DNA of 64,000 nucleotides from Phoronis australis (taxonomy: Eukaryota > Animalia > Phoronida). Where the stretch lies: assembly GCA_002633005.1 (NCBI GenBank), contig NMRA01000024.1, positions 62,001 to 126,000 of the forward strand, given 5' to 3'. Within the stretch, counting starts at the first letter, position 1; every line of letters starts with the position of its first letter. Shown piece after piece: positions 34,722-61,800 of this stretch. The notes beneath the pieces are model-generated. The model had not been told where the DNA came from and made no database searches. It was given only the letters and a program-made list of their open reading frames with translations. A program made the translations under genes and the position numbers.

Positions 34722-34832
34722 TTATAATACCCTCACACTTACCGTTGTGTGCTGCACCACACCACCCAGAGGCCTTCTTCGAGGCTCACTGGCGACAGCA
34801 TGTCGTTCAACAGTAGGGAAATGGAAACCAGC
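34722..34832 (-). CDS. ADAM17: Probable ADAM17 cytoplasmic/terminal exon
   Basis: atttacag|[30 protein letters not shown], then either the donor ACG|gtaagt at 34743 or read-through VSVRVL* (TAA 34724-34722). No homology support. Confidence 0.5.
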   Translation of the reverse strand, partial: AGFHFPTVERHAVASEPRRRPLGGVVQHTTVSVRVL

Positions 34833-37800
34833 CTGTAAATACATGTTAAGTGACCGTCAATTTTAGCTACATTATAATGAAAGCTGAGCGACTCGATCTT
34901 AGTAACGTTATAATGAAAGCTAAGTAACTCAATTTCTGCTACATTATAAAGAAAACAGAGTGACTCAATAATAGCAACACTATAGCAAAAGTTCAGCTAC
35001 ATTATACTGAACGTAAGTTTTTAATAATTTTGAAAAACTCATGGAAGACCGCATCATTCTAAAAGTGACAGCACAATAGAGTGTGCAAAGGAACAAGTAT
35101 ACATCGCATACTCGCATTCACAATGCCTCCTAGTGGTTTATTTTAGTGCAACAAGCCACCAATGCACCGAGGAACCACATAGTAACCAGATACTCAACAC
35201 TGATAACATTATGAACCAAATGATAACCAGATACTCAACACTGATAACATTATGAACCACATGGTAACCAGATACTCAACACTGATAACATTAGCCTTAT
35301 TAGACAGGGTGAAAAACAAAACAACAAAAACAACATTCTACAAGTATAGTACACGCCAAAGGTAAACAGATGAAATACCATTTCAGCGTCATAACAGGTC
35401 ATTCTAGCTATCCTGACAGTGAATTCAAATTGCACTCAGCTGTTACGATATGCCATTTTGTCCAAATTATTCTTGGCGTGTACTAAAGCCTGTGTCTCGG
35501 AGCAACGACAGTAGCTTCTGAGTTGTTATTCTTACCTCAGGTTTGAAGAAATCCTGTTTCCTTTCTTCCTTTTGTCGCCTCTTACGGTCCTAGATAAAGT
35601 GAAATGAATTAACGAGCATTTAACGAATGAGGAGACACAACGATTATGCCGTAGAGAAAACAGGAAAATGAAATACTCTTAGGGTCCTCACTTTCTTGAG
35701 GGAAAAGGTGGTTGTAAACCTGACAGGGAATTTTTTCATCACAAGGACAATTTCCCCTGGTCACCACCTCTCAATGGCATTGCCTTATGTAGCCAAAATA
35801 ACAGGATTTTGTTCGTACGTGATTCTAACCTTGAGGGGAATTTTTTAATCATTGGAGGTGGCTTTTTGTGAATGATGAGGGGAATTTTGCATGACTTTTA
35901 TGTATTTTTTCATACATGAGGATGAATTTTGCCACCCAAATCAATGAATCGAGGGACCTGCCCTTGCAAACAGCGTCACCCACTGACTCCTGATTAGCTG
36001 GCACTAAAACACACTTTTATTTCACGACATCCACCTTAAGTTTGTGGTGAGTAGGGTCTTAACTGTTTAGGTATTCTAATTACAATCAAAGTAAAGTACC
36101 TCAGCAGGAATGAATTACAAGCAAGTAGCACCAGCTACAGGCAATTGTAGGAACATATGCGACAGTTTGCACAGATCTTGTAAAGCCCCCAACTAGCAAA
36201 CTCACGAAGAGTGAAACTTAGAATTTCCCCGAGTTATATTACAAACCTCAATGAACACACATCGAGGAGCATCAAAGACACTCTGGTTCTCCACTTAACA
36301 ACCATGGAAACGGGTGCAAAGGTCAGCAAGTTTAACTTGGTTTACAGGTAGGTCAACTTACCACGTGACTGACCACACAAGCAGCAGGTATCCAGATGAT
36401 GAGAGAAAAGATGATGATAGTCCCCACGATGTTAGCTCGCATGAAAGCGACTGTAAATTTAAAATGAGACAATGAAATGAGGTTCCCATTTAAAAGAACA
36501 ACAATTTTGAGCCTCCTGTCAAAAACAACTTTTGAATAAGATCACAAGGTCACCTACTGCAATGTCGGTCTCAGCTTGGTCTTTACTCAAATACAAACAG
36601 ATTCACAGGCTTGAGAAAGGCCACGAGTTAGTTTCAGTAGCCAAAGCAGTATGGCCAGCAGACATTATGACCTTTCTTTGTAAAGCAAATACAATTAAGA
36701 TTGAACACAGTAGTTGAAGATGGCTCAGTGCAGCTTTAAGAGGAAAAAAAATAATTGCAGGCGGTCTGATACATGTTGTACAAGACGTGCGCAGGCCTCG
36801 CATGTGGGCCCATTGCACTGATCACCTGGAAATATTTTTATGCTTTATTAATATATAGCTAAAACCGAGCTGAGGAGCTAGAAACCTGGCTCAAGGGTTT
36901 AGCAGTGTGACCTGGTGGGACTTGAACCCACCACCTCGAGTAAAGAAAGCGGGCACTTATCAACCAGGCCACACTGCCTCCTCCTGCTTTAAGAGGAACT
37001 CAACACTGTTTTGTTGAGCAAGAGAATCTCTGGAACTGCAGTTGAAAATATCGAAGAAATCAAAAGCTATTATTGGATAAAATTCATTAGCATGACACTG
37101 ATGGTGGCAATGAACCCAGCTATGAATCTCGGAGATGAACCCCAGTGGCCACAGAGGGATGACACTAATCCTAGCTATGAATCTCGGGGACAACCCCCCA
37201 GTGGCCACAGATGGATGACACTAATCCTAGATATGAATCTCGGGGACGACCCCCAGTGGTCACAGATGAATGACTTTATATTAATCCTCACTTTCAGTTC
37301 TGTCAACAGCTCAGGCATTTAAACTGACCTATGTCTGAAAAACTGAGATCAGTGATGATATCCCACAAACGGTTGACAAGGTCCACCGACTGTTTCATGC
37401 ACACACCCTGTAGACGAAACAAGAAATTAGTAAGCAATTACTAACAAATTGTGCTTAAAACAGATCCTGGTAAAAACTTGGGTTTTTTGGAAGTTAGGAT
37501 CGTAAAGCAGTTGTTTGGCAAGAATCATAAATAAAGGACAATGGTCATCAAATCTTTAGGACTGATCCAAGTGTAAAGCGGCCCACAGTTCAAAGTTCAA
37601 AGTATACGGCTGGTGAAAACAAACTGTCTGTGGACTTACTAAGACTCACAGCTGACTGGCTAGGACATTTCCAGTCTGGACACTGCACTAATTCTTAAGG
37701 TGTTGCATGTGTTAAATTACATCCAAACAGTTCGATACGGCCGAATATTTGTGCAACGCAGACAAACAAACTTCAACATCATTATCACTTTCGGAGTCAA

Positions 37801-40800
37801 CAATGCTCTGGGTAAATAATTTCATGTAATTCATAACAAAAGCTACATGTGAGCCGCACTCAAAAGATGGGTTCTTATGACTCAAATCTATTACATTGAG
37901 GCCTTCCGTTAACTGATCATCACTTTTCAAGCTTGGCACCAAGATTGCACGTACGCCATCACACAAGCACAAAAGACAATTCACAGTCATACAGTGAACA
38001 TTGAAGGAAAGTTTATAGTTTATGAAACAAGTTCTCATAATAATAATAATCCTAAAAACAAAAATAGTATTTGAGAAATGGGCTAAACAACGGGCTGATA
38101 CAGGAATGCTAAGGCCCAACTCTTCTACATTTCTACGAATAAAACTGAACACAAGGGGGCATGGCACTACGCACCGTATTGTTACAAAATCCTTGTAGAC
38201 AGGGTTTGCCATCAGGCAGGAAATGGGTGCGTGGCGGGTTGCCGGATAAATATGGCTTGCATGGTTTACCGACAGCATCTCGGCAGCAGTACAGACACGA
38301 TAGTGTCACTGTGATAGGAGAAAAGAAATGGAGTAATTAGGCAAAATACGTAAAACTGAATCAGAAATCAATACAGTTCCTTAAGGATGATAAACCAAGG
38401 GAATTCTTAAAAAATTGGAACACACACAGAGTCTATTTTAATATGATATAATGCATTATGACAGAGAAAATAATGTCCATAGTCTTCTTATGATGGTCAA
38501 TTTAAACAAGAGCAACGCAGAGCGTTGAAATGCGCCCACAATTGCACCGCATACGGTATCCTTCTAGGGTTGTTTATTGGTACCATAAAGTGGCCAGTAG
38601 AGGGCAGTAGTATGTTGTACTTTGCAAAATGGAAAGGCATGGTCATTGTCTCCTCAATAGGCTAGGGGCAAAATGTGAGTAATCTTCATAATACAAGCAC
38701 ATCCTATACACCAGTTGCTTAAAGCACCACAGAAAGAATTAAAAACAAATTTACCAACATACGAGCACAGCATTAGAATGCCAGAAACAAATTTCTACTT
38801 GGAACTTTTCCTTCATAGTCACGAAGTAACACAAAGTATACACCTGAAGACCTATGAAAATACAGAGGTCAATGTAAAATACCAAAATTGCCACTAGAGG
38901 CAAATACTAAAATTGCCACTAGAGACATACCGGTAGTCAGAATCATCCTAAAGTCGTCATCGTCCGTTGTCAACATCACATAAATACACTTGCTAAATTT
39001 AGTAAAGATCCTGCAAACGGTTTGGGAGATACAGCCATGGGTGCAAAAAAACAAAACTGCCACTAGGAGGCGCCACAGAAGTCCAAATCGTCTGAAAATC
39101 ATTGTCAGCTGTCTTCCATATAGTAAGCACATACACACCAATTTTCACAATCATCCTTTGAGCGGTTTGGTTGATAGAGGAGTGGACNNNNNNNNNNNNN
39201 NNNNNNNNNNNNNNNNNNNNNNNNNNNNNNNNNNNNNNNNNNNNNNNNNNNNNNNNNNNNNNNNNNNNNNNNNNNNNNNNNNNNNNNNNNNNNNNNNNNN
39301 NNNNNNNNNNNNNNNNNNNNNNNNNNNNNNNNNNNNNNNNNNNNNNNNNNNNNNNNNNNNNNNNNNNNNNNNNNNNNNNNNNNNNNNNNNNNNNNNNNNN
39401 NNNNNNNNNNNNNNNNNNNNNNNNNNNNNNNNNNNNNNNNNNNNNNNNNNNNNNNNNNNNNNNNNNNNNNNNNNNNNNNNNNNNNNNNNNNNNNNNNNNN
39501 NNNNNNNNNNNNNNNNNNNNNNNNNNNNNNNNNNNNNNNNNNNNNNNNNNNNNNNNNNNNNNNNNNNNNNNNNNNNNNNNNNNNNNNNNNNNNNNNNNNN
39601 NNNNNNNNNNNNNNNNNNNNNNNNNNNNNNNNNNNNNNNNNNNNNNNNNNNNNNNNNNNNNNNNNNNNNNNNNNNNNNNNNNNNNNNNNNNNNNNNNNNN
39701 NNNNNNNNNNNNNNNNNNNNNNNNNNNNNNNNNNNNNNNNNNNTTGGTCATGGAAATTTCTCAACAATACATTACCATTTTAGAGAAAATATACAGATTG
39801 AAATGTGTTTGCAAGCCTGTAGCAAATGGAATATCCTCGAAATCTTTCGAGACCTCAAGGAGGTTACAAACAAGGAGATACTTTCACTCATTAAACTGAA
39901 ATCTTGCAGTATGCAGATGACAGTTTGATGATTCTGGATGGGTCAAAATACTCAATTAGATGCATTTTAAAAACAATGCAAAATTTTAAGGTCTTAAACC
40001 AAACATCAAAAAAAACCCCAAAAAACTCAGTGTGTATGGATTTCATTTGGTTCCAGGAACCATTCGTGAGATCACTTTAGGATTGGAGTTAAATAAGAAG
40101 AGACACATCTACTGAACTGGGTAGACCTAGAAAGTAGTCAAAAGTACATTGAATAAAGAAAGGAAATGAAAGCGTAATTGTATGGCCACTTGGGATGGTC
40201 ACAGTAATTGTGAACAATATTACCAACCTTACCCATTTGTTGATCACACTCCCATCTCTATCCCAAGCTAACATTAGAAATTTTAAAAACCTTTTTTAAA
40301 TTTATTTGGGTCAAAAATGATAGAATAGCTAGAAAAGTTACGATCCAGGATTATGGCAATGGAGGACGTAGAATGGTCCACTTGACTTCTTACATAAAAG
40401 CACTGAAACTTACATGGATCCATAGAAAAGTAAATGCGAAACATATCTGCGGTCTAATAAGCATTTCGGAAAAAACTCAGAAATATTTTACTAATATTAC
40501 GCAACTGCACAAGACAGTTTAATTCTTCATCTTTAGTACAACAATGGCAACCACTATGCACCACAAATACAACAATGGCCACCACCATGTACCACAAATA
40601 CAACAATGGCCACCACTATGCACCACAAATACAACAATGGCCACCACTATGCACCACAAATACAACAATGGCCACCACTATGTACCACAAATACAACAAT
40701 GGCCACCACTATGCACCACATGTGGCAATTGCGGAGGAGTCTCACCGTTATCACATATACATGGCATCTTGTTGTGTTTTTCACAGAACGGCCTACACAC

Positions 40801-43800
40801 GCCTCCACGACACTCGCCCCTGTAATGGAAATTGACACATTTGCAACGTATTGTACACTCAAACTTTTAACAAATAATCAATCAAAATGAACTTGAAAAA
40901 CTATTCCTCAGAAATAAAATGTGCAAGTTTGCAACTGGTACGAGTCCGCCTTTTTAAACCACTTATCTTAACAAGAATGGCCTTATACTGTTAATCTATC
41001 CTACTAGGGGAGAACTCTGATAACTCAGTATTGCTTGAGACCAGGATAAAAAAGTTGGCCTGCGCTCGCGTTTTTTATAAATAAATGAAGTATGGTCCCA
41101 AGCGATAGGCAGATTTAGGGAGGGCAGGGCCCCCCATGGAAATAAGGAAAAATACCATCACGATGACATTTTCATTCACTAACCAGTTTCCCCTTAGAGT
41201 TAGACCCCTCCCTACGGAAATGACAAAAAAAAAAACATCATGATGACGTTTTTAATCATTACCCGGAGTTTTCTTTCAAAAATTTCGATTGAGTTCCCCC
41301 TTACGACATTCTAGATCTGCCAGTGCAAGCAAAAAAGAGCTGTCAGTTCTTTTGAAAACCGACAAATCAGAATGCAAGTTCACAACACCATTAAACTGAC
41401 GTAAAAAGTTATTATAGATCTAAAAAATTCAGCGGCTGTGCAACTTAACTCACAATCTTAACACCTTTGGCAAGTGTTGCCGGAACCGAGTTCTATAAAC
41501 GAGTCATCTAAAATCCAAATTAATCCAATTTTTGGTAGCTGTACATTGAAACAAATGAATGTTGATCAGTTGATCTGGCTACAAGAAACCCCCAACGTCA
41601 CATTCCTGCATTCTCTAACAATAACCAAGCATAAGATTTTTCAAGGGAACCCTGATTAAATTTGAATTTTATCTCTCTCATTTGCCAAACTCGGGGCCAG
41701 TAACTTTAACGGATTACTGCCTCTTCATGCACAACAACTGGTCAAAGCAAATACAAATTTGAATGATGTTAAATAAAAACAAAAAAAAACAAGTGCCTAA
41801 CTCACTCTTCAAAACACGCAGAGCCATCTGACTTCGGTTTCGGTGTTGGGCAATCAGGACCATCTCCACTGATGTGTAGTTAAGGAATTGAAAGCCTGAT
41901 CACTTCATGACTATCATTCTTATTGCATGAAACACGTCACCAGGGGTCTGTTGCATGAAAAGTGACTCAAAGAACTCAGGCAGAAATTTGGTCTGATGCT
42001 CCACATAACCATTTCAGAAGCTGTGAATTGCACACAGTTGCAGTTCTCTTGGCTCAGTGCAGCTGAAGAGCTTCGAGCTCCGCTGGCGGTTTCCAGTGGA
42101 AGTGAGCCAAGTGCATAGCTCACGAAAACGCACGAAAATGTGACTGAATGAACCAGCCAGAAGTTCATTCAATTGTCAATGTCTTAACAAGAGTTTTGTG
42201 CTCAGCTAACGTCACTAGATACAGACAGCTGAGCACCTAACTGTTTGTGTTGCGCTTAAGTGGCAATGACATGCCACAATGGATAATGGTTGTGATCGGA
42301 ACTTAGGGACTTCAGGGACTACAAACTGGACATGCTATGGTCACTGATTTGAGTTGACTGGTCCATCAAAGAAGTGAAAAAGTGAAAACAAACATCTCGA
42401 TTTGTTAGGCCACTTTTATCTAAATACCATTAGCTTAGTAATGTGTATGAGTGAAAAATTGGATGTCATCCGCTGAACAAAGACTTTCGGCTTGCTCAGG
42501 CATTTCGACCGCCTCGAGAATACGAGCTGGCTGCTCAGGATAGTCTACCACAACGAAATTGCTTTAAGCGCAAAACCTCCTGTGTATGTGCACTATCTAG
42601 AAACTAGTTTGGTAACTCATGGCACCACAAAGGATACGAGCAGGTGGAGTTGCCCTCACAGGCTAGATCATCCTCCATGGCCAAGTAGCAGATCTCTGTG
42701 GCCGGGGCAAACTGGCACTCATGACAACACCTGTGATTGACATCACTGAAACAAGAGTACAAAACATGTGAACAAATAAATATTAAGGCAACAGAAAACC
42801 TTTGATTCATCAAATAGCTTTTCGATTGTCGATTTTTAAACCAAGAAAGATTTTTTCTGAATGTTCAACTGTCTGAAAGATCTTAATTGATGCTTAAAAC
42901 ATTAAACAATTGTCGTTTCTAATCATGTGACCATCATTTTTTCTGTCTCAGTTTACAGATGCTTTACAGCAGGGTCTGACCACGGCTGTGTACACTCACA
43001 CACTAACAGCAGACTTTCAACATACAGATCGACTTACAACAGGCACTAACTATGGCCGTGTAAACTCACATACAAACTAATAATACAATTGCAGGCAGTC
43101 TTGTCAGTTCACGTTGAACCAGTAGTGCATGTGGCCCCATTGCACTGATCACCTGGAACCATATTTATGCTTTATCAATATTTAGTTAAAACCGAGCTGA
43201 GCAGCTGGAAACCCGACTCAAGGGTTTAGCAGGGTGGCCCAGTGGGACTTGGAACGCACGACCTCAAGTAAAGAAAGCGGATACCTATCACACTAGGCCA
43301 CACTGTCTCCTGTCGCCTACTAACAGCACACTGTTACAATGTACACGCCATCTTACATCAGGGTCTGACCACGGCTGTGTACACTCACCTACAAACAGCA
43401 GACTGCCTCAGTGTACAGTCTGATGTACAACATTTATCTGTGTTGGTCTGTCCTTCCAATCCACCGTCACATTCCTCCCCGGCCTCAATTTTGGCGTTCC
43501 CACAGTATGCCGTCTCGGGAGAAGCTTCTATTAATCAAAAACAATTATACAAATGAAATATCACAGGGAACAAACAAGTTTCAGATATGAAATGAACATC
43601 GAGACCAAACCAACTTTTGGAGATGATATGCCAACAGTGTGTTCCGTAAAAATAGCGACAATAGTAAAAAGTTTCTTTTAAGATGTATGTGCACGCTCCT
43701 ACGTAATGTACAACATGATGCAAACAGTAACAGGGTTTCAATCTAGTGACGTAACTTGCTGGCTCACATGGCCCGCATCATACAGTGCTATTTCCCAGCA

Positions 43801-46800
43801 CCATGTCATGGTACTTACTAGTTACAGTTGAGTGATTTGCAGCAGACTGTTTTCGCCACAAAACTTCTGCTTAAAAAGATTTAGCAACTTTCAGGCCACT
43901 ACATATTCACATCGTCGCTATATGTTTTGTTTCTAAGTCATTTGACCAAATAATCACCCACATGTTAAGTAGATAGCCTGCAAATCCCACTTCAAATTTA
44001 CCATCTTGTCTAATCAAAATAACACTAAGCGAATACTTTTTTCATCTGAAAGGAAACCTTGCTGTCTTTCCATTATTTCCAATCTCACTTCAAATTTACC
44101 TTCTTGTCTACTCAAAATAACACTAAGCACATAATTTTCAACTTTTACACTTGATTGTAAATAATGGAAAGACAGCAAGGTTTACTTTCTGATGAAAAAC
44201 TTCAGAAGGTGAACAAGTGTCGACTGATGACACGGTACCAATGACCTCTGCTGCCACCTGGCAGCATTAGGAGGAACTTCTAATGAAAAGAACCAGTAAC
44301 AGTGTATTGAGGCTCATTTCAGATGCTGTGAACCAAAGTGAAGAAGCCACCTCAACCAGTCTTCATTTTATCCTGAATCTCTCACATTACTCAAACAAAA
44401 TAAGTAGCACAGTATAATTATAAATTCCAAATGACATTTTGTACCAAAAACACAAGTCAAATGCTTTTAACAGAAATGTGTTCAGAGACAAAATAAGCCA
44501 ATTAATTTTGAACATTTGAGATATAAGTATTGTAAATAAACATAAAAGATAAAACAGTCTGATTTAACATATTCAAAAAATCAAAGTTAACAAATTTGAA
44601 AAATAATTTTGCATATCCTAACCTTTGAAGCATTTGGATGACTTTGCCTTCAACACTTGAGCAATGGACCTCCGGCTGCACTTCGAAAATATCTGTTAAA
44701 ATAGAACATTTTCCTTTCAACCATTTGATGACAGTTCAGAAAATACTTCATATACGACAAAGGTGCGAGCAATCACAGCGCTTTGTAGCGAGACGTGTAA
44801 ATAGTCCTTGAGAAAGGCAGACCACCATGCTAATGTAACTGATATAATCATCATTACCATCACCATCATCACCATCATCACTATATCTAGTGTTTTATGA
44901 AGCCCGCCAACCAGTGTGCACTATGTTGTAAAGATATTCCTATTGTGAATCATCACCATCACTATATCTAGTGTTCTATGAAGCCTGCCAACCAGTGTGC
45001 ACTATGTTGTAGCCATAATTGTGAATCATCAAAACAGCACTTCACCCTGTTAAGCTGGCTAAAAAATTAATGAAAATTGAATTCAAACTTTCACTCTCAC
45101 AAAATTGGCGTTATTGTGATAAGATTTCATTTGAATGCGTTAACGAGGTCAGTCAAATCCCACGTGTCATTTTTGAATTCACAAATTTAGGGCTGGTTAA
45201 CCTTAAAAAAGTCTGAAGCATTTGCTATCTTTGATGGTTTCAATGTTCTTGTTGGACAAGAATATAAATCGGTAAATAAAACAACAAGAATGGATCAACT
45301 GAAATTTGAAATTTTCGGATGTAACAACTTCCTTTATCAACAAAAACAGAAATAAAGTAAAATCAAACACAAAATGACAATCACAAACACAAATAAAGTA
45401 AAATCAAACACAAAATGACAATCACATTTTGTGTTTGATTTTACTTTATTTCTGTTTTTGTTGATAAAGGAAGTTGTTACATCCGAAAATTTCAAATTTC
45501 AGTTGATCCATTCTTGTTGTTTTATATACCTATTTATATTCTACATTTCTTGAAACAATAGTATCCTTGGGAGGATCTGGATCGCCTTATTTAGTTTCAG
45601 ATATATATTTTCTATGTTGGACAAGAAAATACAACCCAATGCCGCAAAGGGATATGACACAACCAATTTCATGTCAGAGAGGAAAAGGACTAAATTAAAA
45701 TTTGATTTTCGTTTTAGAGTCAACTAAACCATGTGAAATACAGCTTTGAAGAATTATGTGGGGCACCTGATTCCAACAGAGGTCAGCACTTACCTTATTG
45801 TTAGTTTCGTAGCCAGACACAGAGTATGTATACATGATGAACTTTCCTCCTTTGAAGGACGAGGGCGAACACTCGTCTGTGTCAGGGTCATGTTCACTGC
45901 CCCAGTTGTGACCTGCGTTATGAAGAACGATGAATTACACCACGGTGTGTGTAATGGGCACGAAACAGTACACGATTATGACCTGTGTACTGGAAAGGAG
46001 AAACTGCACAATGCTCTGTCTACACATATTGTTTTTTCTTATTCGTCTTTCGGATCATTGACTAGACCCTTGATTGTCGCACACGGCTTTGGTATGGCTT
46101 TTGGATTGCCTGTCTACACACCTCTAGTAATCATATGCAAAAAACTGGGGTTGTACAGTCAGGGCTCATTGGAAGCATAAAAATTGCATTTGAGCCGTGT
46201 GCAAGAAAAATGAAGAAATTGCACAATGGCCTGTGTAAGGATAAAGCTGTTAGTAATGGAAATGTAGAAATTACACATTGGCTTGCCTCATTGAAACATC
46301 AAATGACTCGTTATATATATGACCTGCATAAAGTTAATGGAGAAATTTCGCAGTGGACAGTGCTATTGACACAGTATGATAAAGTATTGACCTGTGTATT
46401 GGAAACCTGGAAACTAAATAATGAACAGTATATCTAAAGCATGTGAGTTATGTAGTTATGGACTTAAAACTTTCAAACTTAGAAAAACTAAGAACAAGAC
46501 TCACCAAATTCTGATGTCCGCAAAACATGAAATGAAAACAAAATAAACATTAGTTTTGGTGATGCAAACACAAATGACAATGATCCTCATCCTGAGACAG
46601 TACTGAACATCCTCAAACATGATTAATTATTTTGAGTTATTAGCAAAAACAACTCGGTATTGAAAACTTGAAAATAATCTTCCTCAGAGGCACACTAGCT
46701 CTAGTTTTCCAACTAAAGCATTTTTTTCTTTTGCTGGCTTGAATGGAAACTGGTTAAAATAAATGGCCTGGAATTCCCCCGATGGCCATATTTCTTTGGT

Positions 46801-49800
46801 ATCCAAAACTAAACCGCCGAGTCAAGGCACTTAATGGGCGTGGTCTGAAATAACAATGACCCATCAGTTCTTCCTCAGACTAAAAGCCATTTCTTACCTG
46901 AGTAACAAGCAAGACAAGACTTGGTAAGGAGACCGAAATAAAAAGTTGGTTTTTGACACAATGTGAAAGTTGACTGTAATTTTCAAACGTAAGAGACAGA
47001 ATATTTGGACATAAGATGTAAACGCATAGAGTATAAAACTACAATGCTTTCACAGGGAAATTGCCTCTCTCAGAAACTAAAAAACGTGACAAATTCCAAC
47101 ATTTCACCAAAAGAACTGACCACGCTTGGTCAATCTTAGTGATACATCATCAATATTTTCTCCCAGCTGGAATTTCCTTGTTCTCTTACTGACTATTGCG
47201 TGATTAAGCTTGAAAAAGCTATTGACGATAATCGCAAATCAGGGCAGTCAAGAAATCTTAAAAAGCTTGTTGGGCCAGCAACTTTGATCAACATTGAAAT
47301 CCATGCTTGAAAAATGTTGCTTCTTGGAAACCATTGTTGCATAAGCTTGGATAAAATTTTTGGTCCATAAAAATTCAAAATGACTGTCTTTAGTGAATTA
47401 TATCATTTAGCAAAACTTGTTTTATTACAGTATGGTTACCAAACTAAACATAACCATGTCTCTGGGTATACTAAATTACTCTAAAATAAAGACGTCGACC
47501 ACATTGCTAAGCAAATTATACGAGCTTAGAGTAGAATTTGAAGTAATGTAGACACAAAATGCTTGAAGAAGTATTGCCAAGCTTAAATAATGTTGGCTGA
47601 ACTTGAACAATATTGTCCAAGCTTGAATATTGGATAAGCTTGAATACTGTCCAAGCTGAAAAAATATTGGCAGAGTTGGAATAATATTGGCCGAACTTTA
47701 ATAATATTATCAGTCTGAGCTTAAATAATATTGGCCAAGCTTGAATGTTGGCTGAGCTTGAGTAATATTGACTGAGCTTGAATATTGACCACGCTTGAAT
47801 AATATTGGCTGAGCTTGAATAAAATTGTCCAAGCTTGGATAGTGACTGAGCTTGAATAACATTGGCCAAGGTTGAAAAATATTGGCCAAGCTTGAATAAC
47901 ATTGGCCGAGCTTGAATAGTATTGGCTTGATTGAAGTTACCAGTGAGGATAATTCTACTTCCATGAATTTAGTGTCATACCACAAAAGAGTGTAGTAACT
48001 CAAATACTATACCATGGGTTGTGACAAGATCTGCCTCAGACGTCAGAATGCGTCTCTTAGCTCGATTCAATGAGCTACTCCAGCCAGTGTTCAAATACAT
48101 GGGCGTGGAACCCTGGTAGTAAACTAAATAACAAAATGAACTCTCATTAGGGGCATGGTCTAAATCAAAACAACCAATTTAATATTAAAAAATGCATTTG
48201 CAAGATGCTACGAAATTCTTCAATTTCAGACAAAAATAATTATTTATATTGCCATTTCCCCATCCTTCAAACGCATATCACATGGCTGCGATGGTGCAAA
48301 TATCAATAAACAATGATAGCTGTCAAGTACAAACCATTTTTACAATGATGGAGACCATTTTAATTTTCTTCATAAATCTGATAAATCAAAATTCAACTTT
48401 CCTGTCACATAGCGTCCAAAATTAAAGAATTCTTACCCAGTAAATACTGAGATCATACTCTAAAAACAAATTATGCTTAGTTTACATGCTTCACGTTAAA
48501 TGTGAACAAATCGTGCGTTGTTTAAAAACTCTATGACACATGTTAAGTAACCATTCCCATAATGCAATTCTAAACAACCCATAATGCATTTCTAAACAAT
48601 AAGAAAAAGCAGCATGCAACGTGCAGTTAACACAACAACAACAGGCAACACAATCATTAGTACGCTTTGAAAATGAAACCATCGTCAAATGAACATCAGT
48701 TTAAGCTCTAGAGCTGCCACATTCTAGAGCCAAGCTAAGAGGAATGTTGACCGCACAGTTCATAAGAAGAGCTTTCACAAATGGCAAGCGAACAGGTAAG
48801 CTTGGTGAGGCTATTGCTTAACTGTTCTTTCACAAGACTGAATATTACTTTGAATGAGGGCAAAGAAATGCACTAGGCACACGCATTCCTCAACTTCAAA
48901 AAGAGACACCTAGTGGAAATTTCTGTGTATCACATTGAGTGAACGATTTGTTAGTGACGCTCATAAGCGTAGCCTCTAACCCAAGACACCTGAAGACGGT
49001 GCCAACATGGCCTGGTGAGGGAAAGATGCTGTAAGTATGAGATATTTGCATCATGCCTTCGCGAGGCCAATATCGTGTAGATTATGGTCGCACACAATTG
49101 CTAATTGCTGAGCATTCGCAGACAGATGTCTGCTTGCTCAGCACAAAGCACTAGTGTACAACACTTAATTCACGCCTCAGCAAATCAACATCAACAATAT
49201 GTTAGCAGGAATTGTAGATTTTCAATATCAAACTCAAGTCAACTATGGAATCTTCAAGTTTGTACCTTTCCCTCTCTATTGACAAATCACAATTCAAAAT
49301 GTTTATTTCCAAAAAAACAGAGGGGACTTAGTTATCTCGTATCATATTTCAGCAAATTTGGAACCTATTAACTGGTACAAGAGGCACACCGCTGTGAAAA
49401 TTGGTCGCAGTGACATGACTTATTCCACATAAAAATGAAGAGGTACAAAACTGAAAATTTCAAGCAAATGTAAAAAGTAAACTATGCATTTCACATAGCA
49501 AAAGAAATCAAAATTTTTTGAACTAAACAAATAAATTTAATACTTAACATTGCGGCTCAATGTTTAACAGGCTTCAGTAGTAGAAAAGTCTGTTATTGAA
49601 AATATAACTTATTTAATGAACTTCATCACTTATGCTCTTTGAACAACAAAATGTATTTCCAAAGTTTATAATAAAAATAACAATCAAATGATACAGGTGG
49701 GTGAACATTAGTTATTTTTCAGCCATAGCTTTTCAACGACATTATTAGGGACATCAGCAAAACTTTTAGTATAAACGAAACTCAAGGTAAGCATAGTTCC

Positions 49801-52800
49801 AAATATACAAAAACAATGAATAAACAAAGTAACCCTACGTCAAACACACAGGGCTAAGGTTAAGGTAACAACTTTCAATTGGGCAGGAATTCTCCCACCA
49901 TGCAACAAACAAGATCTGACAACTTGTACATGCTTCAAACAAATTTGGATCGCTTCAATCAGTAGGGAACTGGACTTTTAGTTCTGGCTTCAACCATCGT
50001 CCTCGCATTACCCGGCCAATCTGTAACTCGGAAACCTACCTGAGCCCACTGTGTTTATGGTACGAAGCATTAGCAAAAATGCCACTGTCAAACCCTTACA
50101 ATATTTCACATAACAGATACCTCTGTAACAGAAAAAAAAGGCTTCCCTGGTTTACATGGGCTCCATTTTAAATGCAGTCAAAGCTCATAATCTGCTGTTA
50201 TACAGCTGGCCATTTGAGATCATATTTACGACAAAGATCCCAAAAATAATGGGCTTTCCCTTGATGGTGATTTGGTATATGTTATGTGAAATATCTCAAA
50301 AAGCTAATCATAACTCTCGTAGACATCTGGCACCACCTCCCCCTGTTGATTGCTCAGTTCTGATTGGCCAGAATTTATTCTCCCTCATTGGTCCACCTCC
50401 TGACTGACAGACAACAAAGTACAGTGTGCAGGTCAGTAAAAATAAAAACATACAGTGTGATAGGTGGAACTATATAATGGATATGAAGCATTCCAACAAC
50501 ACTGCATTCAAACAATTGTTTTATTAAAACAATTGCCGACAGACAGACAAATATGTACACGATTCCGATATCAAAATTAGTACCTAATGGTGTTTGTCGG
50601 GCGAATCAGAACATGGATAGCTTAGAGATAGAAGAACAGGCAATATTTTTCTTCAAATCTAAGTAGAAAACACAGTCACCTGGAGAACAGATCCCGCCTA
50701 CGGTATGTTGCATTGGCGAGGCAATCCACGCTAAGCCCAGCACACCGCGGCTGAATGACCAATGAGTGAATAAATGGGCCAAGCAAAACCTTCGCAAATA
50801 AGGATTGCTACTAAACGTCTGCAAATAAAATCAGAGCCATTACTCGTCAGAATTGACAAAGACAAGTGAGGGAAGCAGCGTGTCGCGTGTTGTGGCTTGT
50901 GAGTGGTGCCATCTGACGTCAGTCACTTCCAGGCTTGCCTGAATGATGAGAATTGTCATAGTCTGTCCTTCCTAATTTTTGGGCCACCTGGTTGTTGGAG
51001 GAAAGCTGAGAAACTGGTGCAGAGGTTAGGACATAGGTGGCACTCCAGTAACAAGCACTGGGTGATTGACACCAAGTAGAGTAGGAGCTTATTTTCAAGT
51101 TAAAGTTTGCCCAGAAAAAATGTTTTTTTGGCAAATAGTTCATAGGTAAAGTAGTTTGCATAAACAACGCTGCAATAAAAAGATATGTCTTTGAAATTGG
51201 GAGAATTGTCAACCAGACGTGCTTGTCTACTAAAGGCCACTGAACTAACACGAAAGTCACAGTACCAAAACGAAACAAGTTAAACTACATTGAAAGCACA
51301 ACACATGAATTAACATTCATAACTACAGACAAACAGGAAGCTTAGCATAGCAAGCGAGAAAAGCTTTGAACAAAAACAAAACTATAACACTCCACGCAGA
51401 CGACACAGATAAAATATGAGTCACCTTCAGAGCAAATACCACCAATGCCAAACTCAAACTTGGAAGCAATATATGCCAAGCCTAGAGTGCCGCTGCTGAA
51501 CGACCATGCCGTGAACAAGTGAGCTAAACAGAAAGTTCGATGAGGGTGGTAATAGGGCGCACTCTGAAATGCCTACAAAAAACAGACAAGGCTCTGAGTA
51601 GTATACAACAAAGCCATGCGCAGCAGACATCTATGCTGGTTTCAAGAAGCTGAAGCCAATTTTTATGAGCTCAGAGCTAGCTTCTAGCTAATGAGGGCGC
51701 TTTGAATGACAGAATGAATAGAAAAGATGGTTAATAGGTTTTGTTTGTGCATATTGAATTGTTTGCAACCAATTTCACGACTTTACAATATGAAAAACCC
51801 AAGAGCCTGAAAGAAAAGGAAGACCATCCTGTCAATGTCGTTTCCGTGGTGTAACGTCTGAAAATAAAGTTAGAGAACGTCAGTAGTTATAATCCCATGG
51901 TCAGTACAAGAAACGAACCTTTGAAGTTGACTACTTACTGCTATGAAGTTGGTCTCAGCTTGTTCCTTACTAGGACCAGAAGTGAGTTCTGGATTTGCAA
52001 AGAATTGATAGTTCGGTACTCCATTAGACCATGCTAGGTGTATAAAATTACTCGCCGTGAAAAGTAAACTTTTAGACCCTTATCTCAACCAATAACAAAC
52101 TGGCTCAGATAAGAAGGATTTCTGAACTAACAATTCGTTACTTTTTCGAGACCACGCGTAAAATGACACGCCTTGACAAGCCAACTTTTTGAGCCTACTC
52201 TCAAACAATAGAGAACCGTCACTTCTTTCAAAGCTCATAAATCTACTCCAATTTGGCTAAGCGACAATTTGAGAACAATTTCAAAACAGTAAATAGCCTA
52301 AATCAAAAGTTGGTTTCTGTGATGGAAGGTATGTTTATAACCACTTTAAAGAAACACATGCTTCTCACTACCTAAAACACAAATTATAAAGCAGGTTAGT
52401 CTAACACACACCATGTCTGGAATACTTCCACACTACCGATGGAAAACGAGTTCCATCTCCTAACTCAACAGGGCAACAGCTAATAAAACCGCTGTCAAAA
52501 TTCAATTAATTTTGGCATGGTTGGCCAATCTTTCCAAGACATGCTTCATATCAATTGTAGGCAAAAATGCAGGTAATCTCTTTATTTGTTTCGATGGCAC
52601 GGAACTGACAATTTTGAGACCAGTATTTTCAAGTTAATTTATTTCACAACTTCATAATTAGTCAGTCAGTTAGATGGAAATGTCCCGTTAACGAGTTGCA
52701 AAACATGCGGTTAAAGTTGAAAACTACTCGAGGTCAGGTTGGGAAAACAGAAAATATGAATTTGTCTTAAGCTGCTCTAAATAAATCTAGTTTTCAGCTT

Positions 52801-55800
52801 GATACAAATTCATAATCATGCAACTTGTCAGTGGCATTTGCAGGAGCTGGTACTACGTCGTTTTGGCTTAATTCACACATGTCTACCTACAAGACACATG
52901 TTTCGCTGAACCGCATAAAATCTTAGAACGAAGGTTTCCTTTCCACAAAAACTTGTCCATTTTTCAGAGAATTACACGAATCAAAATTTAAGACCCAGGA
53001 AGGACAAAAAATTATGGCAAAAATATCAGTCTACGCAAAAAATGTCAGAGTGGCCTGGCAAAAGTTCACAAAAAGATCTCAGTGTCCAGGCTGAAACATG
53101 TGATGCAGAAACAAAACACGGCAAAAAATGGCGTGCCACGTAACAAATCCAATATGTCAATACAGAGTGAATCAAACATCCAACACGCATGCAGTGTTAA
53201 TAAAAGACAAACAGATTTGGATTCACCCCCTATTAACCAGTTAACCATTTTGTATAGTTGTTAAAGCCAAAATGGACAACTGCAAACTTAAGATGCCACT
53301 GTAATACTTTCCATTGAAAGTGATTAGTACACGATTAGGTGATGAACACAAGAAGAACAAATGAGCGTTAGAAGGGAATACAGCATAACTTAGCAAAAGC
53401 ACTGTAGGTGGCGCCGTGTACCTCGACTACAGATCCCTCCGGCGACGTCTTGTCTGATGGAGGCAATGTAGGACAGACCGAGAGCGCTGGTCTCGGGTGA
53501 TTCGCCGACTGCCTGCGCCGTGAACAAGTGGGCCAGACAGACCTCAGTGCGATCAATGTCAGAGAACGCCTGCGACACACAGACAAACATCAATGGAATT
53601 AGGATGATTTCCAATCACACGAAGTATCAAAAACCAACCATCTACTTTCAAAATACATGTGTGTGGAGATATACACATCTGGGACGGTTATATGCTACAT
53701 TCACACTGATCAAGTTATAAGCGTCTTTTGCACTAATAAATTTCCGCCTACAATGCATGCAATTTAATCAGGAAATGAAATGTGTCAATTAAGAATTTCA
53801 CCATCACATTTAGATAGTTTTGTATTCTTGGATGAGTATACAGTAATACCACATTTTGCATGATACTAAAATGAAATTTTAATCTTGGAGATTACCAAAA
53901 TTATCAGTCAGAAAGAGCGGTACTAAAAACATAGGGTTTTGAATAAGATTTTGTATCGATGTTCATCTCCTTGTACTTTTAAAATTGCCAAAAACAATGC
54001 ATAGCTTAATGATTTTATTGCAGTCTCTGACAAAGCACTGAAGGTCTTCTGCTAAAATAATTAGCCAACTTCAACGAGCCTTTATCACTGAAAACTGCAA
54101 AAATGGTTAAATACACGATTAATGCAAAGCTGCATTAACACACTGTTAGCAGAGCCACCTAGTGGCAGGGACAAGAACTGAGAAATGCAAACGTAAGCAA
54201 AGTAATTACACAGCAGGATGCAAACCAAACGCAAGATATGTCTTACAGCCAACAGCAACTTAATCAGTTGATTTCATAATGACTAGCACTTAACATAACC
54301 ACTAACATTTTTAAGATTAAGGCAGTTTAACACAATTTGTCAGTTTTACAATAACCTGTCTTCATCTTGGGGCACTCGGTACCACACCTTGTGCTGCGTC
54401 TTTCGTCTTCCATTTTGGTAATACAGTAATTGTTGCATATTGCCAACCGCAGTTTCCCAACACACTGCATGCACTGCCCATGTTCCCCCTAATGCCAATG
54501 AAACTTTCCAAAGTCCATGTTCATCTAAATGCCCACCCCTAATCTCCACGATCCAGACTTCCATAAAAGTGCTTGCGTATGAAATTTGTTAAGGTCAATT
54601 GTACCCCAAATTAAAATAATGTCTTTTTCTCGAAATATCTATCTAGCCATAAGAATATAATTTCTGGAAAAAGGAATCGACACAAATCTATTTATGTCAT
54701 TCTGTGTCAGTCTCGTGGTCCGTGACCCCGCGATTTGGGCAAAAGGGCCGTTTTTTTAAAAGGTACAAGACGGGGAAAAAGATCTTACACCAGCATTCAC
54801 CAAAATTTCTGTATTAAAAAAACTGCTCAAAAATGTGTACGGGATTTCCCATAGTTAATGCCAAAGTTAGAGTTAAAGGAAACCTGCACACAACTTGAAT
54901 TTAATCAGTCATTTATATATTTTTAAACTTTTTAGTTAATTTTAAGGATGAAATGTGGCAAATGTATTGACAAGTCTTTGCAAAGATTTAATTTCGTAAC
55001 AGCTTAGATCTTTTAAAAGCAGAAGGGGTAAAGCGGCGACGTTCTGTTATTAAAAATTAGGAATTAAGATAAACTTCATTGATAGCAAAACAAAGCCACC
55101 TATAACAAGACAAAATTTCGCTGAAATCTCAAAAACAACACTTCAGTATTCTAAAGATCCATTTTATTCTTTTAATTTAGTAAACTTTAAGTGTTACAAA
55201 GACAAACAGCCCCCATGCAAAATGGAAACATTTGGAGCTTTGGAGAACAGAGCCAAATCAGCCATTTTTGACGACACATGGTGTTCCACACTTCGGCATA
55301 TTTGGGCATATTATACAAAATTTTCAACATTCAGGGTCTTTTAAACATTGGGCATTGCATGTGACTGAGCAGGCTAGAAAAAGACAGTGCTTTTAACAGA
55401 ACTGTCAGTAAGCCGAAATGATTTTTGACGGTTAAATATAGCAATAGTGATTGACACATGACCAGAAATCAAGGGAATGAGAAAAAAATTCAACACTGAA
55501 GTTTTATCAATCAAATTTCCGCTGGTGACAGCAATTCTGTGAGGTAGTTTGTTAATAAATTATAGTTTGAATGACCAGGGGCTGGCGTCTAATCTCCATA
55601 CTAGAAATTAAACTTGAGATTATTTTTTGGTATTTTCTGTTCTAGTTTTGTACGACTGTAGTCCGCGCTAGAGTCCATTATGGTTTAAATATGTATTTGA
55701 GTTTCTAGACTAAGTTTGCACTAGACGACACATAAATTCCTGCTACAAACTTGAGCAGAAATTCAGAAAAAAATTGACATTTCGAGTTCCGACTTGAAAT

Positions 55801-58800
55801 TTCAGCTTTAATGCTGGGGTCATCAAGTGCAGACTAGGTTTAAAAAGTTATCCACGTAAGTCAGCAAGTACTTGAGCACAGAATAAGAGACATTTTTCTT
55901 GAGTTCGAACAAAAGTAGAACAGAAAATGTGAAGAAAAATTTCAAATAAAAAAATTAGACCACGGGCCCAGGATTTTGAGAAATATCTATGAATTGAAAT
56001 ACAGATTACATACTTTCTGGCCAAGGCTTACTGACGTTTGTCAAGCAGTGAAGCATGATCAGATTGAGAAAGCAAACACAAATTAAGCACTTATCACAGA
56101 CAAGCATAGATATTGATAATGGCCAAACACCAGAGGCCAACAAACAAAATGTCGCAAACAATTAAATATGCACATTGAATTGGTAACTGAAACACATTCA
56201 AAACAAAATAATTTAAAACAGGGCTACACACAAGGACACTAAATTTGTAAAGAAAGAGTCAAGAACGTTTTGCCAAACAATGCACAAAACTACACAAAAG
56301 GTTTAGTAGAGCACACTATATTATATAACTTTATGTAGACCAGCAAGGTAACATAACATCATGTGTAAAGATAGACAGCACATGGATGCATATGAATGCA
56401 TGCAAACGATACAATATTTTGTAACTAAACATGCATAGTTATTGTGTTAGAAAACACCCAAATCTATTTTAATCCACGTCTTCCACTCCGCTCAGTGAAA
56501 GTAAGATAAAAAACTGGTTTAAAAACTCTTCACAGCACAGAGAATTTTTAGTTCTCAGTAAATCTTTTAAACACAGTGAAATTTTAAAAACTAATTCAAA
56601 GCTACCGCACAGGCCTAAATTATAAATGGACATCTGAATATTGGAAATTGATTCATGAATGTTTATGCCTTAACCCAACGTAAGACTGTCCAGCTGCTGA
56701 CAACAATATCTATTAGTCATTCACAGCTCTGAAATCGTAGTGCAAGGTGGGAAAATAGACACCATTGTGAGGCAGGTGATATTAACGCTTTACCAATATG
56801 TCAGAGTATACAAGTTGATTTCGGGTTATAGGGACCGACAAGGACCAATATTCTCCCAAGGTCCATATGACCTGATAATCCATGGAGATCAGTCTTTATT
56901 TGACTTGTATTATTACACGACCCGCGACCCATTTTTTCCTCCGACTTCTCGTCTCTCATTCGATAACTCTTTTCTCTCCTGCTTTCATGCACTAGCATTG
57001 TCTTTTTGCTTTGTTGTCAAGGATTTATGGTTTGAGTACTTTGGTCAAATCGTGAATAGTGACATCTGATGAGATTTATTCACAGCCTAGTCAGTCCGCA
57101 TTACCTCATGACACAAATTATCACACAGCATTTTAGCCAATCAGAGGATGGAAGTATCAGTGGCCATGTACTTGACCCGCGGATGAGTTTTGGAGACCCA
57201 TGGCTGATCACGAACGAGTACGATACGCCACCAGTTTCGTCACAGTAGGCCCATTTGCATCGACGCATCTCACCGGAGCTATAAACCATCACAACATGCA
57301 TGCAATTCAGTGTTTATGCCAATCTTAGATTCTATAAAACCGAGACCTCATCATGCTCAAAACATATGCAAATGTCGTGAAACACTTACCTCCAACAAAT
57401 CCTTTGTCTGCCAGCCTGTGTTTTCCATGTTATAATGGACGTCTCCTTTTTTCGCCACTTTCGTCCAATCAGTATGAACCTTTATCTACAAGCAAAGAAA
57501 GAACTGTTACTGTGAACAAAACAGTAAAATGTTTATCACATTTTTAGTCTGATCAGCATGCCACCTATGGGCACATCACTTGATCTAACGAATGTAAGCG
57601 ACCACTACTAAGTCTGATTGGATTTCTGTATTCCTCCGGCTCAGTGGACTAGAGCGTCTACACAGTTAGCAGAAGGTCCCGGGTTCGAGTCCCAGAAATC
57701 TTTTCACATGATGTGACCACAGGTGGCGTGCAGACCAGATTTAAAAGTATTAACGATATTCATTAATTTTCCAAAGTGTTGCATAGTATTCCCATTAAAG
57801 TACTTAAAACTACCGATTTCATACAAAACACCATAAAATAACCCTACCTGTCAATCAGGTGTCAAATAAGAGCACCTGCAAACACTGTCCGATGATATGT
57901 TAACGAGCTGATATCGAGTCACAAGGATTTATTGGTTGTTACATACTATGTAGAACTGGGGCAACCAATCAAAGCAGTAGTCATCCTGCGCTGTGTTTAG
58001 TGTGAAAATGTGTTAGATATTGCAGCTTGTTTACCCGTGGTGTTATATATTTAATGTCTTATTGTTGTTAATATGAATTTGTTCATGAGAGAAAATTTCA
58101 TGCCTGTTTATTTGCTCGCCAAATTTACTGCGTTTCTTATTATTTGTTTACAAATATTTGTTAGTCAAATTTACTGTGTTTCTTATTATTTGTTTACAAT
58201 TACCTTAATTTATGGTCAGCGTTGACTCGGGCGTCGATCTGAATGATCGATTTAGACAAATGCACCAGACTTGCATGGAGTAGTCAGATAAATGCACCAG
58301 ACTTGCATGGAGTAGTCAGATAAATGCACCAGACTTGCATGGAGTAGTCAGATAAATGCACCAGACTTGCATGGAGTAGTCAGATAAATGCACCAGACTT
58401 GCATGCAGTAGTCAGACAAATGCACCAGACTTGCATGGAGTAGTCAGATAAAACATAGCAGGAGACAAGTGGCAAGGTGCCGCTGAAAGTCTGACTGCCT
58501 ATAACTCAATTATGATTAACCCAGTTTCATGTTTTGGGAGTTATTAATTCACATAAAACAAGATGTTCACAAAGACACGGGTCCTTTCAAGGATCTTTCA
58601 ATCATGTAAATTGGGGGTGAGCGTTAAGCCAAGCAAAGGTGCTATAAAAAAGAAAGCATGCAAATTTCATGGGTGGGCATTAAATCGAACATGGGCGCTT
58701 GAAAAATGAAACTATTCAAATTTTATGGACTGGCGTTAAATCAAACATGGGCACTTGAAAAGTGAAAGTATGCAAATTTCACAGGTGGTCCTTAAATAGA

Positions 58801-61800
58801 ACAAGCGCATTAACCCGGACAAGCATAATAACTAAGATTTAGCTTTAAAACACGTATGTGTTCTCACATAATAGTCACATTGGCTGTATGGCTGAATGTG
58901 CATGCTTAATCTCACTTCACTCGCTTTAAGAGAAAATGACAAATGGGATGCATTAAACGAAATAATTCACCTCCTTTATTTCAAATCCAAAGTTTGTGAT
59001 GCCGGGTTCAAACTCAGTCCTCCTGTACAAGGCATCTACCCTCCCTATCAAGGCTATCTGAAACAGAAAGAAACTCTTGGTTACAAGTACGGTCAATATT
59101 AATTTCATTTAAAAATGCTCAAGNNNNNNNNNNNNNNNNNNNNNNNNNNNNNNNNNNNNNNNNNNNNNNNNNNNNNNNNNNNNNNNNNNNNNNNNNNNNN
59201 NNNNNNNNNNNNNNNNNNNNNNNNNNNNNNNNNNNNNNNNNNNNNNNNNNNNNNNNNNNNNNNNNNNNNNNNNNNNNNNNNNNNNNNNNNNNNNNNNNNN
59301 NNNNNNNNNNNNNNNNNNNNNNNNNNNNNNNNNNNNNNNNNNNNNNNNNNNNNNNNNNNNNNNNNNNNNNNNNNNNNNNNNNNNNNNNNNNNNNNNNNNN
59401 NNNNNNNNNNNNNNNNNNNNNNNNNNNNNNNNNNNNNNNNNNNNNNNNNNNNNNNNNNNNNNNNNNNNNNNNNNNNNNNNNNNNNNNNNNNNNNNNNNNN
59501 NNNNNNNNNNNNNNNNNNNNNNNNNNNNNNNNNNNNNNNNNNNNNNNNNNNNNNNNNNNNNNNNNNNNNNNNNNNNNNNNNNNNNNNNNNNNNNNNNNNN
59601 NNNNNNNNNNNNNNNNNNNNNNNNNNNNNNNNNNNNNNNNNNNNNNNNNNNNNNNNNNNNNNNNNNNNNNNNNNNNNNNNNNNNNNNNNNNNNNAGGAGA
59701 AGGCGAGGGAGGGAGGGGAAGGCGAGGGAGGGGAAGGCGAGGGAGGGAGGGGAAGGCGGGGGAGGTAGGGGAAGGCAGGGGAGGGAGGGAGGGAGGGAGT
59801 GACACTTTTATTTACATTAGGACATTCAGCAGCTAAACTTATTTAAGTTTTTACCAAAATGTCACATATTATACAGACGCCTTTCTAAATCAAAGCTAAA
59901 AATACTATGAAACAGAAAGTAACATTAACTGTACACTTAGTGAATACTCAGAACCAAATGATTGCCCTAATGTTTTACGCCAATATACCAATGATTCTAA
60001 ACAAAATGTCCCTCACACTTTTATTATGGTAAATAGTGACAGTGTTATGGTAAACAGTGACTTGTGTTTTGGTAAACAGTGACTTGTGTTTTGGTAAACA
60101 GTGACTTGTGTTTTGGTAAACAGTGACTTGTGTTATGCTAAAAAGCCACTTGTGTTATGGTAGTGATTTGTGCAATAGTGACAAGTGTAATTGGCATGTG
60201 TACAAGTTTACCTAGAAAGCAACTTTTGTGGGATTATTTTACATGGGCCATTCTAGATAAAAAATCTATCAACTCTAAACAAAGTGACTCACCAAATAGG
60301 CTGTTGCACTGGCCAGTTTATTCTGGCCCATTTCAGTAAAGAACCGATAATCAGCAACCAGCAGTAGGGGACATGCATTCTTCTTGGCGTCAAAAGCAGC
60401 ACGCTTCACTCGTTCCCCTGAAGACAGGAAGCAAATCATTACAGATAAAAGTTTATGCCACAGACAATAGGCCGAAATATGGAAAAACGTATCCAGCAAT
60501 CTGAACATGGACACCACTTTTGTATAAATAACTTCTGAAATGCAGTTTAGACCATGACCCAATTAGTTAAAAAGTGTCCCCAGGAGGTCTCCAAAACCTG
60601 CGTTTATCGAAGCTGTGTTATACAGAGGCTGACATAAAACATGATCTGAAATAGTAAATATGACAATTTCATTTAAATGTTCCTCCTTCACATCAACTAT
60701 TGAACTTTAAAAAGAGAACGTCTCTTTACATGCATAGGCTTTGCAGTTAACAACGACTAGCATGAATAAAGTTGGAATAGGACGTTCAACTTGTAAGAAA
60801 TTTATCACTTGATTATTTGATAATTGTATTATATTGTGTGCTTTCAAAAAAAGACTATTTTTTACTCAATAAATAAACAAATCAACCAATCAAACAGTCC
60901 ATCAACCAATCAATCAAATCAATTCCAAAGAACGGAAACAATGTTTAGTCCTGGTTAGACCAAATGCAAGTTGTAGTACAAGACAAAAGTAAACACTTCT
61001 GTCATCACTAATGCAGATCTGTTTACAGCAAAAATCAAAGGTAATAAATATTAGGACAGCAAAATTCTAATTGCAGCGTGGCTTAGCCATCTCCCTAACT
61101 CCTGTTAATTCCCTTAGCATTCTTGACCATTAGGTAAGGCTACTCTGACAATAAATTCGACTTCCGACCTGTCACGACAGGGAATTCCTCGTCATCTGTC
61201 TGAATACTTTTACCTTGTACTGTAGGTTAAATCGAAGACACAAACTTCAAACTTGGAAGACATTAACCATAAACAATTTTTCACACTGAGGTAACCAAGA
61301 ACTTCCTACTGCCCATGGCTTAACTGAATGTAATTAGGAAAACTCAAGAGTAGTAAGTCACCGAAAGAAACTATATTCCACACCAAACCATTATCAAAAA
61401 CAACGGTTTTCAAAGATGGGCCTTTAAGGGTAAAGGTGAAACGCATTTGCTGAACAAAAAGTCTTTCCACTCTTACGGTCCGTGAAGTGCCAAAAGTGTC
61501 ATCGCTTAATCACTAACAATAATTAAGATGTCAAAACTTACCTTGTGTTTCATTAGGTACGCTTTTGTCATATGATGTTCTTGGCTGCATGCTGTCTACA
61601 GGATTAGGAGGATTGACTGCGCCGCATACGCTTGGTCTAAGAACATTCACAAGAATTCTTCTATTTATTCATTTATTCATTACAAACTTCTTTAAAAGAC
61701 TGGGTGACCACTTCAGTGAATACACTGATTTTCAAGTGATACCAGTCGGAAATAATTACATGAAGTAAAATACAGACACCTATGTAGAATTAGATTGAAA

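Follow-up and report, generated by a model that had tools for sequence, protein, structure and literature searches.

The locus studied here raised the question of whether the catalytic glutamate of an ADAM17 protease can be supplied by an exon of six bases and, if so, whether that exon acts as a splicing switch or is spliced constitutively. Ligands of the TNF and EGF types are shed mainly by ADAM17. In its zinc-binding motif, HExxHxxGxxH, the glutamate serves as the general base and the exact spacing of the histidines is needed. The product of skipping such an exon would stay in frame and lack the general base.

Results

The ADAM17 gene

The window, a stretch of 64,000 nucleotides from Phoronis australis, contained the body of an ADAM17 gene on the minus strand (34743..63400). 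The model of 20 exons from 63400 to 34743, with the microexon and the alternative exon C included, was a single frame open throughout and carried the 13-residue catalytic stretch; its 5′ end lay past the window edge and the last exon was unmapped. The encoded protein had the HExxHxxGxxH zinc motif with the catalytic Glu, as in ADAM17/TACE. Searches with tblastn and blastp revealed the ADAM17 domain order in alignment to named ADAM17 proteins, and the pro, catalytic, disintegrin, membrane-proximal and transmembrane regions could all be aligned. Among the PDB matches, the protein was nearer to ADAM17 (E about 1e-9) than to ADAM10 (E 0.01). The best full-length match of the model was the Lingula protein (51%), with which it grouped in a quick IQ-TREE tree (98% SH-aLRT), a placement that points to a probable relative of brachiopods; a second tree did not resolve its position among four spiralians. 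The gene was unlike ADAM17/TACE of the metzincins (M12B) in that the catalytic motif was spread over three exons and one exon of the catalytic domain was present in three mutually exclusive versions. A U12-type intron was also observed at window 42637-41869 (minus strand), with the donor GTATCCTTT and, some 10 nt upstream of the AG, the branch site TTCCTTAAC; at this site an old Ixodes model has the read-through YPLLF, a hint of conservation.

A six-base exon carrying the catalytic glutamate

The microexon at 46510-46505 is real, and the catalytic Glu of ADAM17 is carried on these six bases. This had been claimed in an earlier note on the DNA, and the claim was borne out by junction reads, the open frame and a unique splice-site match. 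The upstream exon (48013..48123, minus strand) ended with the His codon and the first base, G, of the Glu codon. It was followed by a GT-AG intron of 1502 nt (46511..48012, minus strand) with the donor GTATAG at 48012, and then by the microexon (46505..46510, minus strand), which had phase 1 on both sides, was flanked on that strand by cag and gtgagt, and completed Glu, encoded Phe and started the Gly of HEFGH. A second GT-AG intron, of 592 nt (45913..46504, minus strand), led to the downstream exon (45794..45912, minus strand; GHNWGSEH...NNK), which started with the last two bases of the Gly codon. Because the downstream exon aligned to residues 408-448 of human ADAM17, the E-F of the microexon corresponded to human residues 406-407, and the catalytic Glu was the equivalent of E406 in the alignment. 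The substitution E406A is the standard inactivating change of ADAM17 (PMC12184519). Direct joining of the two large exons gave an in-frame stretch of 11 residues, and inclusion of the microexon gave one of 13 residues with the complete motif.

That the six bases of the mRNA come from elsewhere than 46510-46505, from another site or through an assembly error at an exon end, was considered extremely improbable. No read joining 46505 or 46510 to one neighbour as a splicing intermediate was listed, with a depth there under 1, so that the six bases are assigned to this place in the genome by the unique splice-site match. In the 2100-nt interval between the flanking exons, the microexon was the sole site with the pattern AG/A[AG]NNNG/GT, and it had consensus signals on both sides. 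In 2000 dinucleotide shuffles, this loose pattern appeared in 14.4%, YAG with E(F/L)G and GT in 1.6%, and E-F with GTRAG in none (0/2000). The flanking exons (48123-48013 and 45912-45794) each had canonical splice sites of their own, and the same gap of two residues was found in many independently assembled genomes.

Inclusion of the microexon in RNA

The RNA data comprised four runs under one species label, of which X2, X3 and X4 were raw reads of one study and X1 was a contig set. About 18-19% of each raw-read run was read, the samples carried no tissue identity, and joints were listed from 3 reads upward. The microexon bases stood between the flanking exons in 41 of the 41 listed junction reads (X2, 11; X3, 6; X4, 9+15), and in run X1 the one contig included the microexon. 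Fifteen of the 24 X4 junction reads had a synonymous allele at 45911, in the Gly codon directly after the microexon. When the downstream exon was omitted from the target, 51 reads with loose ends at 48013 (15+7+29) yielded the inclusion consensus, with agreements of 1, 1 and 0.98, respectively. A skip read would mismatch this consensus at 21 of 30 letters. The agreement of 0.98 in X4 fits the known allele alone, one long skip read together with the allele would give about 0.96, and the figure leaves room for one skip read with a very short overhang. No skip joint between 48013 and 45912 was listed in the four runs at the threshold of 3 reads. The 95% upper bound on skipping was 7.0% (n=41) or 5.7% (n=51), and about 8% for 35 distinct read starts (hand arithmetic). 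With all 41 joints and the 51 loose-end reads showing inclusion, the microexon lay within the PSI of at least 90% that marks a constitutive coding microexon in the three samples.

The earlier note had proposed that the exon is a potential on/off switch and that raw RNA be searched for inclusion and skipping. The search returned inclusion throughout in the three samples without tissue identity, and the switch found no support in the four runs. A regulated switch, in which the exon would be skipped in some tissue, stage, stress or lineage (for example, one without eMIC) to give an in-frame ADAM17 without Glu, was considered unlikely. Inclusion held across samples that differed in other splicing of the same gene, and an exon included in neural tissue only would mean a dead ADAM17 everywhere else.

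Alternative exons of the catalytic domain

The three alternative exons that had been proposed together with the microexon proved real, as each was joined by reads to the same downstream exon at 48123. Exon A (148 nt; 53422..53569, minus strand) was joined to it in 5 reads of X3 and 1 of X4, and its 5′ joint was not seen. Exon B (148 nt; 51425..51572, minus strand) was joined to it in 5 reads of X4, and 4 reads ran from its 5′ side into the exon that ends at 57390. Exon C (139 nt; 50680..50818, minus strand) was joined to 48123 in 5, 4 and 19 reads of X2, X3 and X4, respectively, and 3+8 reads linked its 5′ side to the exon that ends at 57390. All three had a length of 3n+1, and no A-B, A-C or B-C joint was listed in the RNA runs. 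Up to six forms of the transcript had been envisaged; three were supported by reads. The use of A and C differed between samples (A:C of 5:4 in X3 and 1:19 in X4, Fisher p=0.005; X3 vs X2, p=0.086), and the samples therefore differ in the splicing of the ADAM17 gene, yet all of them included the microexon.

Exons A, B and C encode the edge strand of the substrate cleft, and the three forms may therefore prefer different substrates. Alternative versions at this position were seen in Lingula (X1/X2) and in the Ixodes isoforms X1/X2, and run-together copies were seen in the Paralvinella and Owenia models; the exon A type had TAQAV in common with Owenia. In Capitella, two ADAM17 models (P0030 and P0042), whose longest contigs were equally long, each had a different version of the alternative exon and may represent either tandem genes or one split gene. 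Mutually exclusive exons of the catalytic domain, common to the Lingula, Owenia, Paralvinella and Ixodes models, form a separate lead.

Splice signals of the microexon

The 3′ splice-site region of the microexon (46511..46585, minus strand) contained a 73-nt zone free of AG, a CTAAT at -43 as a putative branch site, a U-rich tract, a TGC at -12 (46522-46520) and the CAG, and the 5′ splice site (46499..46504, minus strand) was the consensus GTGAGT. The U-rich tract was set back from the AG and the last 10 nt before the AG were purine-rich. The eMIC-dependent exons described earlier have a long AG-free zone, a CUAAY branch site and a UGC by the AG (10.1101/2021.02.24.432780). The microexon was also well below 27 nt in length and preserved the frame, as is first expected of an exon of the eMIC type. 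Among the 22 acceptors of the gene, UGC at -25 to -5 was present in 5, CUAAY in 5 and an AG-free zone of at least 68 nt in 7, and the acceptor of the microexon was the sole one with all three marks. This layout, together with the preserved frame, favours a regulated switch. UGC by itself is weak evidence because 5 of the 22 acceptors had it, and it aids the action of SRRM4 and is not required for it (10.1101/2024.09.17.613571). The branch-like site, the pyrimidine tract and the TGC to which attention had been drawn were all present, but their layout was not specific to eMIC exons. A distant branch point is plausibly a general solution for any tiny exon. No RBFOX-type TGCATG was found in the two introns flanking the microexon.

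The intron after the microexon contained decayed repeats about 70 nt apart (window 46430-45909, minus strand). Three of them ended in CAG/GTCA like the true acceptor (46394, 46326 and 45985), an arrangement found in 0 of 5000 shuffles for a pattern that was chosen post hoc. No use of these sites was found in the RNA reads of the runs. The repeats may stem from old duplications of the acceptor, or they may be decoys or sites of recursive splicing.

Predicted effect of skipping

The AlphaFold models of Ixodes X2, which has E-F, and X4, which lacks it, were compared. The active-site helix spanned residues 403-417 in X2 and 403-411 in X4, and the pLDDT over 411-420 was 91 in X2 vs 44 in X4, where the confidence was lowered partly by construction, since all other rows of the alignment have both residues. 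In the prediction for the skip form, the zinc helix lacks its C-terminal half and the protein is locally unfolded, and a damaged domain would fit this prediction better than a tidy dominant negative. A predicted loss of this kind would speak against a regulated switch.

ADAM17 models of other animals

Gene predictors had been expected to miss the microexon, and an exact gap of E-x was indeed found in 7 of 131 long homologs and in 23 of 150 representatives clustered at 50% identity. The long homologs had HExG in 123 cases, exactly two residues missing in 7 (Capitella, Paralvinella, Haemaphysalis, Rhipicephalus microplus, Ixodes X4, Nymphon and Argiope) and another arrangement in 1. Among the representatives, the motif was intact in 104, had the E-x gap in 23 (21 by pattern, plus P0389 and P0441), was otherwise broken in 2 and was not matched in 21. 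The gapped representatives included Trichoplax, Capitella, Haliotis cracherodii, Argonauta (two), Pinctada, Sinanodonta, Littorina and Bulinus, and a coral was the intact control among those looked up; H. asinina, I. persulcatus, I. pacificus and Amblyomma americanum were additional members of gapped clusters. Overall, the gap occurred in annelids, molluscs, ticks, a spider, a sea spider and Trichoplax. For Capitella, Ixodes, Argiope, Rhipicephalus microplus, Haemaphysalis and Haliotis, a further model from the species itself or from a congener had E-F.

An analysis of 102 short ORFs, mostly read-through, showed that 12 started at Gly, 6 started at E(F/L) and 84, mostly insect-like, were contiguous. 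Each of the two intron positions is therefore found, separately, in other genomes, and there are lineages with one or no intron. Where the second residue is Phe, two introns would be implied, since a slipped donor or acceptor of a single intron cannot remove six bases; judging from the protein models, other species thus appear to have both introns. The cases of Trichoplax and H. asinina are uncertain because a second codon for Leu, Ile or Val that ends in A permits one intron with a slipped acceptor. The Trichoplax gap, considered as proof that the microexon predates eMIC, was downgraded for the same reason. In the second tree, many divergent mollusc-like ADAM17 paralogs of the P0351 clade and its neighbours kept the same two-residue gap, which suggests, from the sequences, that the microexon was copied along in mollusc-like gene expansions.

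Annotated isoforms offered a further argument for a switch. The RefSeq isoforms X1, X2 and X5 of Ixodes had E-F and X3 and X4 lacked it, so that all four combinations with two alternative exons were represented; in Argiope, one annotated model had E-F and another did not, and the one RefSeq model of Amblyomma americanum that was seen lacked it. These models may reflect real skip junctions or aligners that dropped the 6-nt exon, and the latter would produce the same skip intron in annotations. The UniRef Ixodes entry P0244, which lacks E-F, was rejected as transcript evidence of skipping, since it has four errors in common with the old genome model EEC01386 and is not independent of it.

The E-F-less isoforms of Ixodes and Argiope would also be expected if inclusion were leaky, with modest, unregulated skip transcripts in some lineages and the protein cleared or inert. 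The reads were compatible with skipping of up to about 6-8%, very short exons are skip-prone (PMC4317164), and a protein that is locally unfolded, as predicted, would tend to be cleared. However, the reads showed no skipping, and E-F was present in 11 of the 11 tick and scorpion sequences from Logan that spanned the motif, assemblies of a kind that drop rare forms. Leaky inclusion was accordingly held to be highly unlikely.

Discussion

The six-base exon is probably old and constitutively spliced, two introns having come to lie six bases apart in an older HExxH stretch. An older coding stretch would have been cut by two phase-1 introns at this distance. The distant branch point, the long AG-free U-rich tract and the consensus donor would permit the introns to be removed one after the other, and for this reason the microexon is likely not skipped. 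Both introns would be at least as old as the ancestor shared by spiralians and chelicerates, with losses of one or both in many lineages. Since skipping preserves the frame, predictors would join the large exons directly and produce false ADAM17 models without Glu, and many animal models lacking E-x likely look catalytically dead by mistake. Some observations weigh against constitutive splicing: the three samples came without tissue identity from one study, and neural-only samples would likewise show full inclusion of an eMIC exon; and the full eMIC-type acceptor layout, the purine-rich last 10 nt and the E-F-less Ixodes, Argiope and Amblyomma models all remain to its debit.

The microexon was like the constitutive animal micro-exons (Li et al. 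2015, PMC4317164) in its full inclusion in the samples seen, its consensus donor and its moderately short introns (1502 and 592 nt), and unlike those that are typical of them in its extreme shortness, in the U-rich tract set back from the AG and in the purine-rich last 10 nt. In that survey, constitutive splicing applies to about 81% of the human micro-exons that are ≤51 nt long, the share falls sharply with shorter size, and a U-rich tract at a distance from the AG is found more typically with alternative ones. With the neural microexons regulated by Srrm3/4 (eMIC) it had in common a length of ≤27 nt in a multiple of three, the AG exclusion zone, CUAAY and UGC near the AG. It differed from them in that it encoded an invariant core catalytic residue, contiguous in insect-like genes, rather than an added loop, and in that no skipping was seen in three samples.

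The DPN mini-exon of plant GH32 enzymes (invertase and fructan exohydrolase) is likewise a tiny, frame-preserving phase-1 exon with a catalytic acidic residue. A branchpoint and a pyrimidine tract are reportedly required for its constitutive splicing. This exon has 9 nt and carries the catalytic Asp, and its loss gives an in-frame, presumably dead enzyme (PMC4477480); it is often missed by annotation (PMC8831610). In contrast, the ADAM17 exon belongs to an animal zinc metalloprotease and has 6 nt, and its loss removes two residues in the middle of a helix and breaks the His spacing. Cold-induced exon skipping is reported for a potato invertase transcript, which favours a switch; the ADAM17 joints listed here all showed inclusion. 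By analogy, the microexon would work like the plant DPN mini-exon, and it cannot be filed as an eMIC exon.

If constitutive inclusion is correct, many of the invertebrate ADAM17 entries in public databases that lack the catalytic Glu, RefSeq models included, are annotation errors and not pseudo-proteases; the groups concerned would be ticks, a spider, a sea spider, abalones, bivalves, snails, a cephalopod and annelids. The microexon would then be a natural, very short and apparently old exon strongly selected for inclusion despite an eMIC-like layout, and it would directly test whether such a layout marks neural regulation or the general need of splicing a tiny exon. A bolder proposal is that the exon is ancient, possibly pre-bilaterian in view of the Trichoplax model, and serves to switch ADAM17 off in certain tissues, under certain stresses or in lineages such as ticks; together with protostome-wide mutually exclusive exons of the catalytic domain, it would yield active and dead sheddase forms from one gene. 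We regard this as unlikely, and return to constitutive splicing as the preferred reading. A literature search for an ADAM17 microexon or mutually exclusive exons found no description among the entries listed, and supplements or VastDB catalogues could list the microexon.

Additionally, a long inverted repeat and three tandem arrays were noticed by eye in the introns (about 45640-45240; 47920-47580; 58440-58250; 40710-40540), and short repeat pieces at 51929-52347 attracted many reads from elsewhere.
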